From NCBI GenBank assembly GCA_052327205.1, contig CM126212.1, positions 157,232,001-157,296,000 on the forward strand: 64,000 bases of DNA, in the 5' to 3' direction. The translations under genes and the position numbers were made by a program. This stretch comes from Somniosus microcephalus. Lineage: Eukaryota. A model generated the notes under the pieces. The model did not search any database. It had not been told where the DNA came from and saw nothing but the letters and a program-made list of their open reading frames with translations. Positions 48,405 through 61,375 of this stretch are shown piece after piece. How positions within the stretch are numbered: the first letter of the stretch is position 1; each line of letters begins with the position of its first letter.

Positions 48405-49610
48405 GAGGCCCAGTGGTAGCACTCTTGCCTCTGAGGCAGAAGTTCTTGGGTTCAAGCCCCACTGCAGATACGTGTGCACATAATCTAGGCCGACACTTCA
48501 GTGCAGTACTGAGGTGCCGTCTATTGGATGAGACATTAAACAGAGGCCCTGTTTGCCCTCTCAGGTGGACGTAAAAGATCCCATGGCACAATTTCAAAGA
48601 CGACTTGGGGAGTTCTCCCTGGCCAATATTTATCCCTCAACCAACACCTAAAAACAGATTATCTGGTCATTTATTTCATGGGGTCTTGCTGTGCATAAAT
48701 CAGCTGCTCATTTTTTCTGTATTGCAACAGTGACTACACTTCAAAAAGTACTTAATTTAGGCTGACCATACATCCCTGTTTTCCAGGGACAGTCCCCGGA
48801 TTAGGTATTGTGTTCCCGGAAGAGTCCTCGGATCAGAAAACTCGCCCCCAAATAGAGTCTTTTTTTTAAAATGCAAATGTACAGAAACTCCAGGGGCGAG
48901 ATTCTCAGCCCATTCCCACCCTGTTTGATCTCAGGAATGGATTCCAGGAGCCAGTTGAAGGGAGGAGACGATGGCGGCCCCCGCCTTCCCACAATGCTGC
49001 GTGGCGGAGGAAAGGCCCCATCGATAGCTCAGGCCGCACTGCACTCTGGGGGATTGAGTCACCTGAGCCCGTGTTTCAGCCAACAGTGACTGGCTGGAGG
49101 GCAGAACCTTTACAATGCACGGGGGAAGCAGTGAGAGCTGGTTGGTGAGTGGATTTACTTTACCTCACATTAGTATGGTGCATCGTGGTTTTATTTTTAC
49201 TGAATAAAGCAAGCTCTAAATTCTCTAATTTCTTAAACCTTCTGAGACAGCGGGTGCTTCACACCTTGTATGGAAAATCTCAGTCTGTTCGGAACAGATT
49301 TAAAATTGAGAAATTAAAAGTTGGGGTATTTGGGGACGAGTATAGGTGACACAGCACTATTACCAGAACACACGCAAGATTCGAAATTCGGTGTAAAGTG
49401 AAAACGGCATTGTCTCTACACGTATTCCACTAGCAGCAGCAACAAAGTCGTCAAGCCGGTTTTCTTGAAACCCGTCCTGGCTACTTTGCTGTGCTCTCAG
49501 CCTGTGTAGCCCCGGATTCGGTTTAGAAAATATGGTCATCCGAACTTAATTGGCTTTAAAGCGCTTTGAGGTCGTGAAAGGCTGGATGTAAATTAAAGTT
49601 CTTTCTTTAT
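48405..49610 (+). mobile_element. SacSINE1-like SINE interrupted near its tail by a hAT element
   Basis: cagtggtagcactcttgcctctgag, B box ggttcaagccc; tail resumes at 49544. Confidence 0.85.
48758..49543. mobile_element. Non-autonomous hAT (Tip100-like) DNA transposon
   Basis: Imperfect TIRs taggctgaccata / tatggtcatccga; 8-bp TSD acttaatt at 48750-48757 and 49544-49551. Confidence 0.85.
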
Positions 49611-52014: not shown

Positions 52015-52870
52015 ACAACGGCAACTTGTATTTATATAGCACCTTTAACATAGTAAAAAGTCCCAAGGCTCGTCACAGGAGTATTACCAAATACAATTTG
52101 ACACCGAGCTACATAAGGAGATATTAGGGCAGATGACCAAAAGCTTGGTCACAGAGCTAAGTTTTAAGGAGCATCTTAAAGGAGGAGAGGTAGAAAGGCG
52201 GAGAGGTTTAGGGAGGACATTCCTAGATTAGAGTTTAGGTAGCTGAAGGCACGGCCACCACTGTTGGAGTGAAGAAAATCAGGGATGTGCAAGAGCCCAG
52301 AATTGAAGGGCCGCAGATATCTCGGAGGGTTGTAGGGCAGGAGGAGATTAGAGATAGGGAGGGGCGAGGCTATGGAGGGTTTTGAAAACAAGGATGAGAA
52401 TTTTAAAGAGTTACATTTATATAGCGCATTTCAGGACCACCGGACGTCTCAAAGTGCTTTATAGACAATGAAGTACTTTTGGAGTGTAGTCACTGTTGTA
52501 ATGTGGGAAACGCGGCAGCAAATTTGTGCACAGCAAGCTCCCACAAACAGCAATGTTATAATGACCAGATAATCTGTTTTTTTTGTTATGTTGGTTGAGG
52601 GATAAATATTGGCCAGGACACCGGGGATGACTCCCCTAAAATTGAGATGTTGCTGGACCAGGAGCCAGCGTAGGTCAGCGAGCACAGGAGTGATGGGTGA
52701 ACGGGACTTGGGGTGAGTTAGGACATGGGCAGCAGAGTTTTGAATGAGCTCAAGTTCACGGAGGGAGGTGCAAGTTGGGAGACCAGTCAGGAGAGTGTTG
52801 GAATAGTCGAGATTAGATGTCATAAAGGCACGGAGGAGGGTTTCAGCAACAGATCAGCTGAGCCGGGCAT
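52015..52870 (-). mobile_element. L2 3' portion with nested SINE fragment (52408-52637)
   Basis: Minus-strand LDYSNTLLTGLP..IQNSAAHVLT..PITPVLADLRWL; SINE tail and core inside. Confidence 0.88.
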
Positions 52871-53859: not shown

Positions 53860-54322
53860 AAGAAAGACTTGCATTTATATAGCGCCTTTCACGACCACCG
53901 GACGTCTCAAAGTGCTTTACAGCCAATGAAGTACTTTTGAAGTGTAGTCACTGTTGTAATATGGGAAACGCGGCAGCCAATTTGCGCACAGCAAACTCCC
54001 ACAAACAGCAATGTGATAATGATCAGATAATCTGTTTTGTTATGTTGGTTGAGGGATAAATATTGGCCAGGACACCTGGGAGAGCTCCCCTGCTCGTCTT
54101 CGAAATAGTGCCATGGGATCTTTTACATTCACGTGAGAGAGCAGACAGGACCTCGGTTTAACGTCTCATCCGAAAGACGGCACCTCCGACAGTGCGGCAC
54201 TCCCTCAGCACTGCACTGGAGTGTCAGCCTAGCTTTATGTGCTTAAGTCCCTGGAGTGGGACTTCAACCCACAACCTTCTGACTCAGAAGCTAGTGCGCT
54301 ACCAACTGAGCTGCAGCTGACA
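53860..54322 (-). mobile_element. Full-length SacSINE1-like SINE
   Basis: Collinear with 23331-23795; A box cagctcagttggtagc, B-box-like gttgaagtccc. Confidence 0.9.
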
Positions 54323-54695: not shown

Positions 54696-55476
54696 GGGGG
54701 CGATTTTCCCAGCTCTGGGGAGACGGGACTGTCAGGAAAATGGCAGAATCTGGGAGCGGGTACCCATCCCGCCCACATGCCATCTTCCCAGGAGGCGGGT
54801 ACCCGAACCGCGCCTGGTCCCGTCTCCTCGAGGCGGGAATGGGATTAGTGCCAACTACCTGCCTGTTATCAGGTAGTTAACAGGCAGCTCTTTGGCTAAT
54901 CCTTATTTTGAGCCCTGAAGTGTGGGCTTCCCGACAGCTCCGAACCTCGCAAGGGTCAGCGAGGCGAGCTGTGAGTCTGCGGGGGTCGGAGGGGCCGAAA
55001 TATCTGGTGTGCAGGTGAGTGATGAGTGCAAGTGTGCAGAGGTAAGTGTGTGAGGTGAGTCTAAAGTGTTTTAATAAGATTACTTACCTTTGCTTCTTCC
55101 TCCAGGCTTCATCCCTTTAGGCTGCGGAGCTGCCTCATCTCACCAGCTGAGAAAGCAGAATGGCCGCTGCATTCTTAAATGCAGCAGCCTTCTGCTTTCT
55201 GCTCAGGAAAGCTTTCTAATTGAGTCTTGAGTAAAGGACTCACCAAAGAACAGAGATCATCAGTGTTTGACAGCTTCTCAATTCATCTGTCAAAATTTTG
55301 ACAGATGAAACGTCATACGCTGACGTTCTGTCACCGGCTTTCCCTTAATTGGCAGGCTTAACAAGGCCAATCAAGGGAAAATAGCACGGGTTGGCCAGAC
55401 GTCGATGGAGGCGGGACTAAAACCCGACAAACAGCTTTCCCGCCTCCATCACATCCCCATTGATAAAATCACCCTC
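54696..55476 (+). mobile_element. MITE family 2, TSD TTC
   Basis: TIRs gggggcgatttt / aaaatcaccctc; collinear with 60270-61075. Confidence 0.85.
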
Positions 55477-56289
55477 TTCATCTCAGTGTTCATAGTCAGA
55501 AAGCAAAGTCTGTTAGATAAAATCTTGCATACTGCCCAGACCAAAGACTTCCCAACGCATTGGGTGTGAGGTGTTTATTGAATACCAAGCTAATGAATTG
55601 CTTATTGTTTACAGTCTTTAGGGATAAAACTTCAACGTTTGGTCTATTAGCATATAAATCACTTTATATATAGGTTTGTTTATTTTAAACTTTCATGAAT
55701 GCACTTTCCTTTAAAAATCTAGCATTTAAAGGCAATTTATTTTCCAATTCTTTTCTGTGGAAAAGTGGTCAAAAAAAGTCCTGAAACCGGATAGTCATTC
55801 TCCCTAAAATGCCACTTAGGGTTTAGTGAAGTTTGGAAGGACAGTTTGCTTCCGTTATAACCAGTGAAAAATAATCATAGTCATTGACAGAGGCCAACTT
55901 GGTCTGTTCTGATCATGTTATTGTATATTACATCCCACTGGATGGTTTTACAGGAAGTTAACATGCACAAAAGCAGTAAATGGAGCATTAACTGTTCAGT
56001 GGGAACTGTGTATAATTACTGACGTAATAAAACTCACTACGCACTTGGTTTGAGCATAAAGCAAGGCTTTAATCAACTTGTTTCAGAACATGGAGGTCTA
56101 GATGTATTTCACTAGCGCCTTGTCTTACAAAATGTCCCTGGCAAGCTGGGGCCCATGCCCGAGTATTTATACTCCTGGGACAGCGCCACCAGCTGGCCGT
56201 CCAGCGTTATTTCACAAGTAGTTTCTTGATGATGAGATTTATAACAATCTTCCTGCCTAAAAGATTTGGAAGTCCAACGACTTCCTCTT

Positions 56290-58620
56290 AACGGATTAGG
56301 TGGACCACGAATAGCCGCAGTCTTTTAGATTTTTGTTTATGGGCAGAAGCCACGTCTCCCCGGACCGTGTCTTGGTCCCTGGGCCACTTGATCCATACCG
56401 GTGGATCGACAGGGCCCGTGTTGCTCTGTTCGACCCGTGGGAGGCTGGGGAGATCGTGACTCCAGGTGCGGGTCCCCACAGGCGCAGAGCTGGCTTCGTC
56501 CCGTTGGTTAGCCGGGGTATGTGGGGCTGACGTCCGTAAGTTCTAACTCGTCGACTAGAGGATCAGTTTTCGTCAATCGGCCGAATCTTCGGAGCAGCAC
56601 GGGGCCAGGAGCTGCCAACCATGACGGTAGAGACGTCCCATGGGTGGAGCGACGCTGGAAGCTGAAGAATCGCTCGTGAGGTGTGACATTGGTAGAAGTA
56701 GAAAAGAGAGACCTGATGGAATGCAACACGTCAGGGAGCATAGTTTCCCACTGCTGGTCTGGTAGGTTGCATGACCTCAGCGCAAGACGAACAGCGTTCC
56801 AAATGATAGCGTTGTATCTCTCAACCTGTCCGTCACCAATGGGATGGTACGGTATTGTTTTACTTGTGGTGATTCCCCGTTGGGAGAGAGAACTTTTGAG
56901 TTCGCTTGACATGAAGGAGGGACCCTAATCAGAGTGGATGAAATTGACCGTACCGCAAAGGGAAAAGACTTGATCATGGCATTTGATCACTGTGGAAGTA
57001 AGCATATTGGGACAGGGGAAAGCAAAGGGAAAGTGTGAATATTCGTCCACCATAGTCAGTAAGTAGGTGTTTCGCGTTGAGGAAGGCAATGGCCCTTTAA
57101 AGTCAATGCTGAGTCGCTGCATAGGCTGCATAGCGTGTATGAGCGAGCCATCCGATGGATGGAAGAATTGCGGTTTTAACTCCGTACAAATTTTACAGGA
57201 GGAGCACGTTCTTTTCACATCTTCTGTAGAAAATGGGAGATTTTTAGATCGCACAAAGTGCAACATACGGGTAACGCCAGGATGGCACAAGTCAGTATGA
57301 AGATCCGCTAGAGTCGAAGTTGACATAGAAGAGCAGAAAGCCCACGTGAGGGTATCCGGGGCCACATTCTCTTTGCCGGGTCGATAATGTATGGTGTATC
57401 CAAAGGCAGCCAATTCCATCCTCCGGAGTTGTATTTTGTTAATCTTGATGTTAGTGCGTTTCCGGTTATCCAGCATAAAGGCCACGGAGCGCTGATCGGT
57501 TATGTATGAAATGGCGACGAGCGAGAAAATGACTCCATTTACGTACTGCTTCGATGATGGCCGTAGCCTCCTTCTCGACAGGAGGATAATGGAGCTCGCT
57601 ACCCTGCAAAGTTCTGGACAGAAATGCAACGGGTCGACCACCTTGATTCAAGGTAGCAGAGATCGCCACATCCGATGCATCGCACTCGACCATGAAAGGA
57701 AGATTTTCATCAATGGAACGAAGCATGGCTTTTTCCAGTTGTTGCTTGAGGAGGTTGAAAGCTGAAATAGCCATTGTCTCCAATGGAAAGGACTTAGCGT
57801 GAAGCAGGGGCTGGATCTTGTCGGAGAAGTGGGGTATCCATTTCGCATAATAGGCGAACATGCTGAGTGCCCGATGAAGAGAGCCGAGATTCGTAGGGGG
57901 AGGGAGCTCCTGAAGCGGACGAAGTCGCTCCGGATCCAGTTTGATGACACCGTTGCCCACCCAGTAGCCAAGGATGTTGACTGATGGTACTGATTTCACA
58001 GATTTGGACTCATTTAAAGTTAAGTTGCGACGACGGAGAACGTCAAAAAATTTCTGGAGGTTGGCATCATGCTCCTTCTGGTCATGACCAGCAATGGTGA
58101 TATTATCCAGGTCTGGAAAAGTGTCCGTTAAGTTCTCCTGTTTGACTAGGCTATCCATTGCCCGTTGAAAGACGGCCACCCCATTGGTGACCCCCAAATG
58201 GAAGGGGACAAAACTGGTAAAGCTGACCATTGGCCTCAAAGGCTGTATAATTTTTGCCAGAGTCCTTTAACGGTACTTGATGATATGCGCTCTTAAATCA
58301 AAAGTTGAAAATACCTTGTAGTTGGCAAGGTTATTGACCATGTCATCGATGCGTGTAGTGGGTCGGCATCCAGGTCGGTATACTGGTTAATAGTTTGCGA
58401 GTAATCGATGCAAAGACGTTTCTTCTGTTGCCTCAGAGGATTTTTAACAATAACGACTTGAGCCCGCCAGGAAGATGAACATGGCTCAATGATACCGTCA
58501 GCTAGGTGGTGAGAGATTTCTGCCTCGATAAAGGCTCGATCATCTTGGCTGAAACGTCATGATTTAGCGACTATGGGCTTACATCGGGGGGAATGATTGG
58601 CAAACAAGGGCTTGTCGAGC
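56290..58620 (-). pseudogene. pol of Gypsy element 2 (RT, RNase H, integrase) with stops and frameshifts; protease apparently deleted
   Basis: RLCIDY at ~58400-58420; GVTNGVAVFQR; DLDN; CDASD..EKEA; LHTDLCHPG..CKIC; IDFKGPL; NIHSD-like; GQVERYN. Confidence 0.9.
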
Positions 58621-58717
58621 GAAGCCACCGAAAGCGCACAAAACGGTGCCCTTGACAGCTGTAACCTTAGTAGTGGTCCTTGGGGGAGGAGCAGTTTTAT
58701 AGATTGCAGCTGTAACC

Positions 58718-59638
58718 TTAGTAGTAGCTCTTGGGGGAGCAGTTTGGAGCAGTTTTATAGATAGTAGCTGCAAAACTAACAGGAGCTCTCGACCGGTATA
58801 CCTTAGAAAAGTGGCCTTTCTTACTAACAGTGACTCTTGACTGGCATACTTTAGAAAAGTGACCTTTCTTGCTGCAATGATTGCAGGTTGCGTTATGAGG
58901 ACAAAATTTCCTATAATGAAACGCACCTCCACAGAAGAAACACTTCCTTCCGGATTGCCAAGATGCCGCTAGGGTGGGGTCGTCATCAGTGTAGGTTTCT
59001 AGGGTAGGGTTGCCATCAGCCAGGTTGGAGTCGTCATCAATGAGGGCTTCCGCCCGAGGCCTATCAAAGGAGTCACTAAAAGTGATTGCAGCAGCCCGTG
59101 CACGTGGTGAAAGATAGGTATCTGCATTCCTCTTTGCTAAGTCCAGAGAACATGCCTGGTCATAGGCAGCCTGTAACTTGAGGCTTTTATTCTCCAACAG
59201 ATGCTGACGTATGAAAGGAGAAGCAATCCCATTAATAAAGGAATCATGAATTAACTCCTCCTGGTACTGCTCAGCTGTAACAGCTTTAAGATTACAATCC
59301 TTGCTGAGCCTGCGAAGTTTCTGAAGGAATTCGTCAAGTGATTCCCCGGGTTGTTGTCGAGTTGTGGCCAGTAGATGCCGAGCAAAAATTTCATTTGGGG
59401 ACTTGACATACAGCTGCTGTAGTATTTGGATAGCGGCGTCATAGTCTACACAGTCTTCGATATAATCAAACACATGAGGGGATACATAATTCGCAAGTAT
59501 CTCTAATTTATCAGGAACATTTTCACCACACACCCTGAGAAAGTTGCTGAAAGTATGATACCAGTGTTTCCATATCTTAGCAGCTGTAAGTGAATTCGGG
59601 TCCAGGTTGAGACCGTCGGGGCTGAGTAGTTTCTCCAT
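58718..59638 (-). pseudogene. gag of Gypsy element 2
   Basis: FARHLLATTRQQPGESLDEF; CFFCGGAFHYRKFC and CNHCSKKGHFSKVC knuckles; internal tandem duplications. Confidence 0.85.
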
Positions 59639-60269
59639 GATGGATCGATTACTTGTCGGAGTTCCCTTCTACGGTTCGAGTCGTAGCTGGCTGTTCCCAA
59701 AATCACCCAAAGCGCGGAGTCGATATCAAGTTGATTAAATTGACGTAATAAAACTCACTAAGCACTTGGTTTGAGCATAAAGCAAGGCTTTAATCAACTT
59801 GTTTCAGAACATGGAGGTCGAGTTGTATGTTACTAGTTCCTTGTCTTACAAAATGTCCCTGGCAAGCTGGGGCCCACGCCTGAGTATTTATACTTCTGGG
59901 ACAGCGCCACCAGCTGGCCGTCCAGCATTATTTCATAAGTAGTTTCTTGATGATGAGATTTATAACAATTACTGTGCATGCTGTCAAAACCACCTTAAAA
60001 GTGGCACATCGGGCAATCCCATACAAGAGCTTTTGACCAGGACTTATATAAAATACAACATTCTTGACATGGTCAACATAACTCATATGCAGCCAACATA
60101 ATCCAATAAGTTAATTTCTATAAACATCTGTCCCAGTACGCATCTCTATATCAAATCATAAAACTACGTCTAATTTTGTGCCAAGAAATTTTGCTTCTAT
60201 AGTTTCTTTGCCTATTATGCACATGGTTTATTGCAAGTTATTGAGTTCAATTACTAGTTCAGATACTAA

Positions 60270-61075
60270 GGGGGGAATTTTCCCAGCCCTGGGATGGAGG
60301 CGGGACTGCCGGGAAAATGGCAAAAACTGTGAGTGGGTACCGACCCCGCTCCCAACCCGCCTCCGTGCCATCTTCCCGGGAGGCGGGTCCCCGAGTCGCA
60401 CAGGGACCCGTCTCCTCGAGGCGGGAAGGGGATTAGAGCCAATTAACTGCCTGTTAACTTGTTTTGAGGCTTATCCTCATTTTACCCCTGCAAGTGCGGG
60501 CTTCCCGACGGCTGCGATCCTCGCCAGGGTCAGTGAAGCGAGCAGTGGGTCTGCGGGGGTGAGAGGGATCGAACAGTCCGCTGTGGAGATGAGTGATGGG
60601 TGTAAGTGTGGAGAAGTAAGTATGAGAGCTGAGTGTAAAGTGCTGGAAAAAGTTTACTTACCTTTGTTTCTTTCTGCAGGCTTCAACCCTTGGGGATCCG
60701 GAGGTGCCTCATCTCAACGGCAGAGATGACAGAATGGCTGCTGCATTCTCCGATGCAGCAGCCATCTGATTTCTGCTGAGGAAAGAGGTTTTGGTGAGTC
60801 TTTGTGCAAGGGCTCAACTTAGAACAGAGATTGTCCGTGTTTGACATCTTCTCAAAGCTGTCAAACACTGACAATTCATCTGTCAAAATGTTTTCGACAG
60901 ATGAAACGTCGTACGCTGACATCCTCTGTCACCAGCTTTCCCTTAATAGGACAGGCTTAACAAGGTAAATCAAGGGAAAATAGTGTGGGTTGGCCAGACG
61001 TCGTTGGGGGCGGGACTGAAACCCGAAAACCAGCAGTCCCACCCGCAACGCGCCCCCATTGACAAAATCCAGCCC
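60270..61075 (+). mobile_element. MITE family 2, third copy
   Basis: TIRs ggggggaatttt / aaaatccagccc; collinear with 54696-55476; TSD not exact. Confidence 0.8.
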
Positions 61076-61179
61076 ATAGTTACTGACGTTATCATTAAGC
61101 AGACAGGCATCGCTTATGACTTACATTATCAAACCATGGGGTTGTCTCATGGTGATTTGTTCTTAAGGTATCAAATGCT

Positions 61180-61375
61180 AATAAAGAAAGAACTTACATT
61201 TATCATCACTTCAGGATGTCCCAAAGCGCTTTACAGCCAATGAAGAATTTTTGAAGCGGAGTCACTGTTGTAATGTAGGAAACGCGGCAGTCAAATGTGT
61301 GCACAGCAAGCTCCCACAAACAGCACTGTGATAATGACCAGATAATCTGTTTTAGTGATGTTGTTAACTCCGGGG
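61180..61375 (-). mobile_element. SacSINE1-like 3' fragment
   Basis: Same tail and core as 53860-54050. Confidence 0.85.

Follow-up and report, generated by a model that had tools for sequence, protein, structure and literature searches.

The window, i.e., the whole 64,000-nucleotide stretch of Somniosus microcephalus DNA that was analyzed, contains a Ty3/gypsy retrotransposon whose primer-binding site is complementary to a segment (here called the arm) of its own long terminal repeat (LTR), and a real, tRNA-free primer site of this kind is found clade-wide among its relatives. It is very probable that these elements prime their own reverse transcription in some form. To the more specific reading that the element's own RNA serves as primer as a 5' fragment, after a predicted cut at the AAA|RC junction that ends the arm, we assign a probability of roughly 0.64. 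The element likely self-primes in the manner of Tf1 while lying outside the Tf1/sushi chromoviruses.

The element occupies positions 56020-59967 on the minus strand and is flanked by a 5-bp target duplication, GTAAT. Its gag, the PR-RT-RH-IN order that follows between the LTRs (a domain order read in six relatives) and the target duplication are those of the Ty3/gypsy group. The following features were recognized, all of them on the minus strand:

59968..59972 (left copy) and 56015-56019 (right copy), minus strand: target duplication GTAAT
59741..59967, minus strand: 5' LTR, 227 bp, TG...CA
59892-59885, minus strand: TATA-like box TATAAATA at LTR position 76, of putative function, with a predicted start near 59861
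59789..59801, minus strand: LTR arm (LTR positions 167-179), holding ATTAAA and ending 3' in AAA; predicted 3' part of the self-primer
59788..59789, minus strand: predicted RNA cut site AAA|GCC, between LTR positions 179/180, placed from fold-back junctions and end points
59762..59788, minus strand: hairpin beginning at the first base past the arm, with an RCC..GGY-type stem kept across the clade
59740, minus strand: single-A spacer between LTR end and primer site (CAA in 21/22 family representatives)
59727..59739, minus strand: position of the primer-binding site, fully complementary to the LTR arm
58718..59638, minus strand: gag reading frame with zinc knuckles and a short repeat tract at its end
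56508..58546, minus strand: broken pol, with RT, RNase H and integrase spread over several frames
56248..56258, minus strand: polypurine tract (PPT), from sequence
56020..56246, minus strand: 3' LTR, with 12 differences from the 5' LTR and a second arm copy at 56068-56080

Compared with another copy (L158) in the 6.4-Gb host genome, the window pol lacks ~390 bp of the protease region and, toward its 3' end, ~250 bp, and the window copy is, as judged from its sequence, a dead element. Direct repeats with a period of 44-58 nt at the end of its gag (58656-58870) duplicate the region of the second zinc knuckle. The element is flanked by two copies of a host repeat that are ~80% identical (54719-55470 and 60296-61069, spaced ~5.6 kb apart), and SINE-like repeats occur in the window at 48482-48747, 52405-52637, 53863-54235 and 61177-61353.

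Past the CA that ends the 5' LTR there is one A (59740), after which positions 59739-59727 match the reverse complement of 59801-59789 exactly. The initial annotation had described this arrangement accurately: 13 nt after the LTR complement the LTR itself without a mismatch across a 49-nt loop, ATTAAA closes the arm, and no TGG site of the tRNA type follows the LTR of the window copy. The arm 13-mer has three matches in the window (both LTRs and, on the other strand, the post-LTR site), as compared to 0.02 expected. It had also been claimed that the arm is unchanged in both LTRs despite about 12 other differences, and the count agrees (12 sites, none within the arm), which is weak evidence by itself because there are only 12 differences in 227 bp. 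The 166-nt leader folds no better than its shuffles (z 0.41), yet the arm duplex is present in the minimum-free-energy structure; the signal of pairing lies in position and covariation, not in folding energy.

The pairing is well kept inside the host genome. Among the 30 copies closest to the window element, all 13 pairs are intact in 27, a single G-U pair is present in two, and the remaining copy carries a mismatch. In a sister subfamily, for which there were 740 strict matches, the arm is shorter by one base, and a site shortened to match was seen in 21 of its 25 fetched copies, the window version in 0/25. Family 2, with ~54% gag identity to the window family and open frames of ~1,230-1,250 aa, has a different arm, which is paired over 11-15 nt in 30/30 copies.

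For a broader view of the clade, a gag alignment was used to collect the best 80 of 89 metagenome loci, of which three were dropped for having too little upstream DNA; the remaining 77 and four copies from the host's own genome made a set of 81 loci in 27 families. A perfect run of 10-19 bp that begins 1 nt past the CA was found in 22 of the 27 families (50/81 loci), as compared to a longest pairing of 9 in control stretches of equal length inside gag. These family counts take the best member of each family, and pairing columns 1-10 are perfect by selection (at least 10 perfect pairs); the LTR end was set by a second LTR in 10 of the 22 families and by motif in the rest. Of the five other families, one pairs with single mismatches, one is decayed (by eye) and three have no pairing. 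The 22 families carry 18 distinct arm 10-mers, and perfect pairing between families occurs in only 8/462 cases. Beyond the selected columns, pairs 11-14 are Watson-Crick in 21, 21, 19 and 16 of the 22 families, respectively, and none is G-U. Every arm ends in AAA and is followed by RC, every primer site starts with ATTT (22/22), and a stem of at least 4 bp opens at the first base past AAA in 18/22 families (shuffle mean 3.9, with 0/500 shuffles as high). The last six arm bases are ATTAAA in 11 families, AATAAA in five and other sequences in six. The LTR ends 24-72 nt downstream of the arm and the gag ATG follows 18-52 nt past the LTR end in 21/22 families, so close that there is no space for another primer site. 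None of the 22 families showed a TGG site able to pair with a tRNA 3' end.

The initial annotation had asked whether relatives carry complementary sites of covarying sequence, and had named intact relatives with an ordinary TGG site as the finding that would speak against it. The pairing does prove to be clade-wide and to covary (in 22/27 families), and the intact relatives that were looked at have no TGG site; the best reading, tRNA-independent priming, is supported by this covarying pairing across the clade. It is very improbable that the primer is a small RNA of the host, such as a tRNA fragment. Half-tRNA primers occur in Copia lineages (PMC6317226, in excerpt), but the site in these elements begins without TGG, and a fixed host RNA cannot match it because it changes with the LTR over 18 arms, even in one genome; on the evidence of these sequences, covariation largely refutes a host small-RNA primer. 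Rfam and ARAGORN found nothing locally.

Named protein homologs of the clade come from crustaceans, cnidarians, a tunicate, a mussel and a nematode; a search of viral contigs found no relatives. The RT motif reads YxDN instead of YxDD in 91 of the 101 homologs in which it was found (19/120 were unmatched), even in copies with identical LTRs; it was seen in the window (~58095-58110, where it reads DLDN), in P0121-P0240, and in L032, L033, L039, L046, L050, L054, L153 and L158, whereas family 2 and L081 retain YLDD. A literature search for the YxDN motif in this clade gave nothing relevant. Upstream of the arm, at distances that vary, several unrelated families have a CCATNTT-like motif that is presumably YY1-like (window ~59810-59817; L049, L035, L078 and L113).

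A second line of evidence comes from solo or rearranged LTRs in which the copying process appears to have left a trace. The junction sought was U3-arm, then T, then antisense U5, which is what extension of the arm's 3' A on the primer site would produce. The genome holds 253 such fold-back junctions, 61 in the window family (F1), 42 in family 2 (F2) and 150 in the sister subfamily; reversed-pattern controls gave 0 matches, and the equivalent junction of a sushi-type control group in the same genome also gave 0 (counts that are not per LTR copy). All of the F1 and F2 fold-backs (61/61 and 42/42) and 90/150 from the sister subfamily were fetched and sorted by structure. Class I copies are near-palindromes with two U3 ends (20/61 F1 and 6/42 F2, with exact target duplications in 13 and 3, respectively). 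Class II copies, the return solo LTRs, carry an insert of ~21 nt, made up of the T and antisense U5, which separates AAA from an intact GCC..CA; they make up 55/90 fetched copies in the sister subfamily, 6/59 in the window family and 0/40 in family 2 (61/149 in the window's two subfamilies), two duplicates having been removed from each of the window family and family 2. In class III the antisense part ends at 179-180 (6/61 F1, five of them independent); of the rest, 9/61 end inside the arm and only 2/61 between LTR position 4 and the arm, and in family 2 none ends at the cut position. Class IV consists of 11/90 sister-subfamily copies that end at -21/-22, of which the seven placed on a U3 tree form one lineage. 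In class V the sense part passes the PPT into pol (9/61 F1, 3/42 F2), and class VI, a whole LTR with a short U3 tail, is common in family 2, the tails being mostly 18-72 nt long and without a peak.

The return-type copies have target duplications in 46/62 cases, no primer site after them, and no PPT upstream (0/43). The insert matches the U5 subtype of its own copy, and the return copies are intermixed with normal LTRs on the U3 tree, a tree that rests on 19 changes, only two of which are forced by starred branches. The first inserted base, T, is the complement of the spacer A, while 36/46 target duplications start with another base (by eye); because the inserted T matches the element's spacer and not a host base, the fold-back event would have come before integration. 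Some solo LTRs would then be integrated copying errors and not recombination leftovers.

The same junctions bear on whether the role of the duplex could be purely regulatory, a hairpin near the start of gag that conceals the 5' poly(A) signal, with a protein or some other RNA as primer and the fold-backs as accidents of template switching. We regard this explanation as improbable. Inverted repeats by themselves cause template switching, the arm holds AATAAA or ATTAAA in 16/22 families, and the LTR ends merely 24-72 nt past the arm. In every family, however, the site stands exactly at the primer position and no other primer site is present; G-U pairs are absent where a structural helix would allow them; AAA|RC is invariant while the hexamer varies; and each junction opens with the complement of the spacer base. 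The suggestion in the initial annotation that masking of the poly(A) signal could be the main purpose of the duplex is weakened by the contrast between a hexamer that is canonical in 16/22 families and a junction that never changes, and masking is, from the sequence, a possible side effect.

Turning to the preferred reading, in which a 5' fragment of the RNA is the primer, minus-strand DNA ends at the base past AAA, a position that fits the return LTRs, and therefore the RNA was likely cut there and its upstream piece primes. The end points of classes II and III place the 5' end of the template at 178-180, as a Tf1-like cut would leave it. Return and fold-back LTRs offer, in effect, a genomic read-out of where minus-strand DNA stops, and the cut site is directly testable from it. 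We envision a folded leader in which the arm is paired to the site 1 nt past the LTR and the hairpin is predicted to stack directly 3' of the arm. A cut of the RNA behind the third A likely follows, with RT/RNase H as the putative enzyme by analogy with Tf1. The upstream piece would prime a minus strand that runs off at G180 (59788), as the fold-back end points suggest, and that would normally jump to the 3' R. The plus strand would then recopy the primer site from the primer, and covariation would be strictly Watson-Crick because plus-strand synthesis renews the site in this way. For class II, a minus strand that has ended at G180 may snap its 3' end onto its own copy of the conserved stem, recopy ~21 nt and the primer, and move to the 3' R through the arm; the return copy would integrate as a lone LTR because the primer is lost and the primer site cannot be remade.

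Several observations count against the cut. Return copies stop at the start of the hairpin, where a pause or template switch without a cut would give the same junction, and microhomology blurs the position by 1-2 nt. Family 2 has 0/40 return copies and none ending at the cut, and the copies ending at 166-180 could derive from nicking of hairpin DNA after one-ended integration. Of the 19 changes on the U3 tree behind the intermixing, only two are forced, and the 9 F1 and 3 F2 fold-backs that pass the PPT are explained by the cut model only via mis-annealing to a second RNA. For class II itself, the alternatives are that synthesis paused at the base of the hairpin, that the template was switched twice in the four-point manner, or that hairpin DNA was nicked.

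In classes I, V and VI, plus-strand DNA runs from U5 into arm-complementary sequence and on, and each of these classes is explicable by snap-back, by a long primer or by a primer from the RNA 3' end. A longer primer is favored because the sushi-type group has no fold-backs though its duplex is no weaker (-13.1 kcal/mol as DNA, against -12.5 for the arm clade), a comparison in which copy numbers are not normalized; with the same qualification, the lack of fold-backs in a group with a Tf1-type primer also weighs against the cut model. One form that a long primer could take is the 3' end of the RNA, such that the 3' LTR arm pairs with the primer site, the RNA circularizes, and its 3' end, trimmed or cut to AAA, primes with U3 still attached; strand transfer would employ the second packaged RNA. 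If the plus strand read on through so long a primer, all three of the common fold-back classes would follow from one process: full-length palindromes with target duplications, short tails of U3, and tails that pass the PPT. The sushi-type control has none of these, and both the poly(A)-like hexamer inside the arm and the 11 copies that end 21-22 nt upstream of the cut, as though the template were uncut, are in keeping with it. We nevertheless think it unlikely, for the 5' end of the template at 180 must then be either the start site (with an A before it and no TATA at -30) or a second cut, and if the start is upstream, the 5' arm, 49 nt from the site, should win. Moreover, the palindromes are explicable by DNA snap-back, and the copies ending at -22 belong to one U3 lineage with sequence there that resembles an integrase end. 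Were 3'-end priming true, LTR reverse transcription would have a third mode of initiation, beside tRNA and Tf1, of which the palindromic and PPT-spanning fold-backs would be the relics.

The class IV copies (L356, L381, L391, L404, L427, L429, L433 and four others) have integrase-end-like ends and mostly target duplications, and their U3 lineage has an altered stem after the arm; either a start site or an att-like internal site may lie where they end. Three deleted copies (L260, L318 and L251), in which a 61-73 nt extension of the primer site jumps straight to the 3' region of pol and the 3' LTR, resemble a failed second strand transfer.

The length of the primer depends on where transcription starts. 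The initial annotation had placed the start ~60 nt upstream of the arm on the basis of the TATA-like box, and this start is one candidate: a box at that distance is conserved across the window's subfamilies. In addition, the tails of L260 and L318 end at LTR positions 107-108 and then pass into pol, although these are two of eight informative tails. L264 had been taken as a tail ending at the TATA-predicted start and was dropped, its boundary being a later SINE-like insertion. Over the clade as a whole, families do not share any one TATA distance: a TATA-like box lies at -25..-35 in 1/21 families (shuffles 0.7) and at -55..-115 in 6/21 (shuffle mean 3.8, p 0.16). For a start at the arm speak a run that we take to be initiator-like, with G at the tenth place before the cut in 20/22 families, and the nine copies that end within the arm. 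Two RNA-seq runs, which disagree on strand, had no pile-up of starts or poly(A) ends near the arm when examined on the window LTR; for the window family, LTR reads were on both strands at a depth several-fold above that of the internal region, a pattern that favors neither start. Poly(A)-tailed retrocopies of the window family and family 2 had 0 matches. We lean slightly toward a capped fragment of ~73 nt (start near 59861) as primer of the window family over one of Tf1 size (11-16 nt), the two being nearly even.

The host genome itself provides controls for these comparisons. Two other Gypsy groups carry TGG sites, which we take to be those for tRNA-Ser and tRNA-Pro. A chromodomain-bearing sushi-type group (PF00385 in control L196) has an 11-nt arm in 7/8 copies, the same 1-nt offset as the arm clade, a loop of 150-162 nt, and a TATA-like box at exactly -30 in 3/3 copies checked, a geometry that is textbook Tf1 (bioRxiv 10.1101/2022.12.06.519325 and PMC7175516, both in part). 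Copies L193-L212 are young chromoviruses of this type, in which the 11-nt self-primer is clean, TATA stands at -30 and AGTAAA lies downstream; sushi-type tandem arrays with a 4,643-bp period were also seen, and L203 and L204 are nested within another LTR element. A chromodomain at the integrase C-terminus was found in 0/6 full polyproteins of the arm clade, which is a chromodomain-less Gypsy clade and forms one side of a fully supported branch, 100/100 (16-row quick tree; 7-row LG+G4 tree). RT-RH identity of the arm clade is 31-33% to the sushi type and 29-31% to the TGG groups. The best RT-RH tree, unrooted and with three other lineages but no named references, sets the sushi control elsewhere (85/83); an arrangement with the arm clade and sushi as one side is not rejected (p-AU 0.219), so that a shared as well as a separate origin is compatible with these data.

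The closest known systems are the Tf1 and Tf2 elements of S. pombe, Tj1 and the Tf1/sushi group in general, which likewise have a primer site complementary to their own LTR and a predicted cut at the end of the duplex (PMC7175516, PMC4600332, PMC5341516 and bioRxiv 10.1101/2022.12.06.519325, as far as excerpts of these go), with Tf1 known to cut and then prime (PMC7175516, in excerpt). The offset of 1 nt past the CA is shared between the arm clade and the sushi-type control. The initial annotation had held that the geometry differs from that of Tf1, and the anatomy of the clade does depart from the sushi-type control in the same genome: the arm clade has no chromodomain and sits on a separate, long RT-RH branch; its arm is variable, 10-19 nt as compared to 11 nt, and its loop is 24-72 nt as compared to 150-162 nt; TATA at -30 occurs in 1/21 families versus 3/3 controls; and the poly(A)-like hexamer is inside the arm, not ~75-85 nt downstream in the form AGTAAA. 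One of the two outer duplexes of the "pretzel" (the loop versus the 30 nt after the site) is absent from the 22 families (mean longest match 4.8, with 4.9 in shuffles), and there is a local hairpin past the arm instead; by the same measure the sushi-type controls reach 8, 8 and 6. The annotation's suggestion of an undescribed mechanism holds in part. We found no description of this clade's priming in the open literature (subscription papers and entries in Repbase or GyDB may hold one), but the chemistry is probably Tf1-like, i.e., cut and then prime, and because of this the clade is best viewed as using a known mechanism in variant form; a primer from the RNA 3' end would change that.

As to the identity of the clade, a Cigr-1 element, ~4.2 kb in size with short LTRs and a single ORF, fits it. 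Cigr-1 itself (Ciona, molluscs and annelids) is a small non-chromoviral metazoan Ty3/gypsy clade, according to excerpts of PMC6238403 and PMC8556966, and is a candidate name for the arm clade; the MolGy clades are equally possible. The Saci2/lennie elements of flatworms also have primer sites that vary between families, but with 4-bp target duplications and tRNA assignments, as compared to the 5-bp duplication of the arm-clade element (PMC12471100, in excerpt). Annotation pipelines that depend on recognizing a primer-binding site will miss or mislabel this clade, which would also evade control by tRNA fragments. To our knowledge, self-priming has been shown experimentally only for fission-yeast Tf1 and is regarded as a hallmark of the Tf1/sushi group. 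That the trait can arise outside of that group is suggested by the plant Ty1/copia TAR lineage (Houba, Osr-1) and the Tcn1 clade, for which self-priming has been predicted from an LTR-complementary site 0-5 nt past the LTR (PMC6317226, in excerpt). Those elements are of the Copia order or chromoviral, and from plants, whereas the arm clade is metazoan, non-chromoviral Gypsy, and if so widespread an animal clade has an architecture of its own, tRNA-free priming would either have arisen a second time or be older and more widely used than the Tf1/sushi group suggests.
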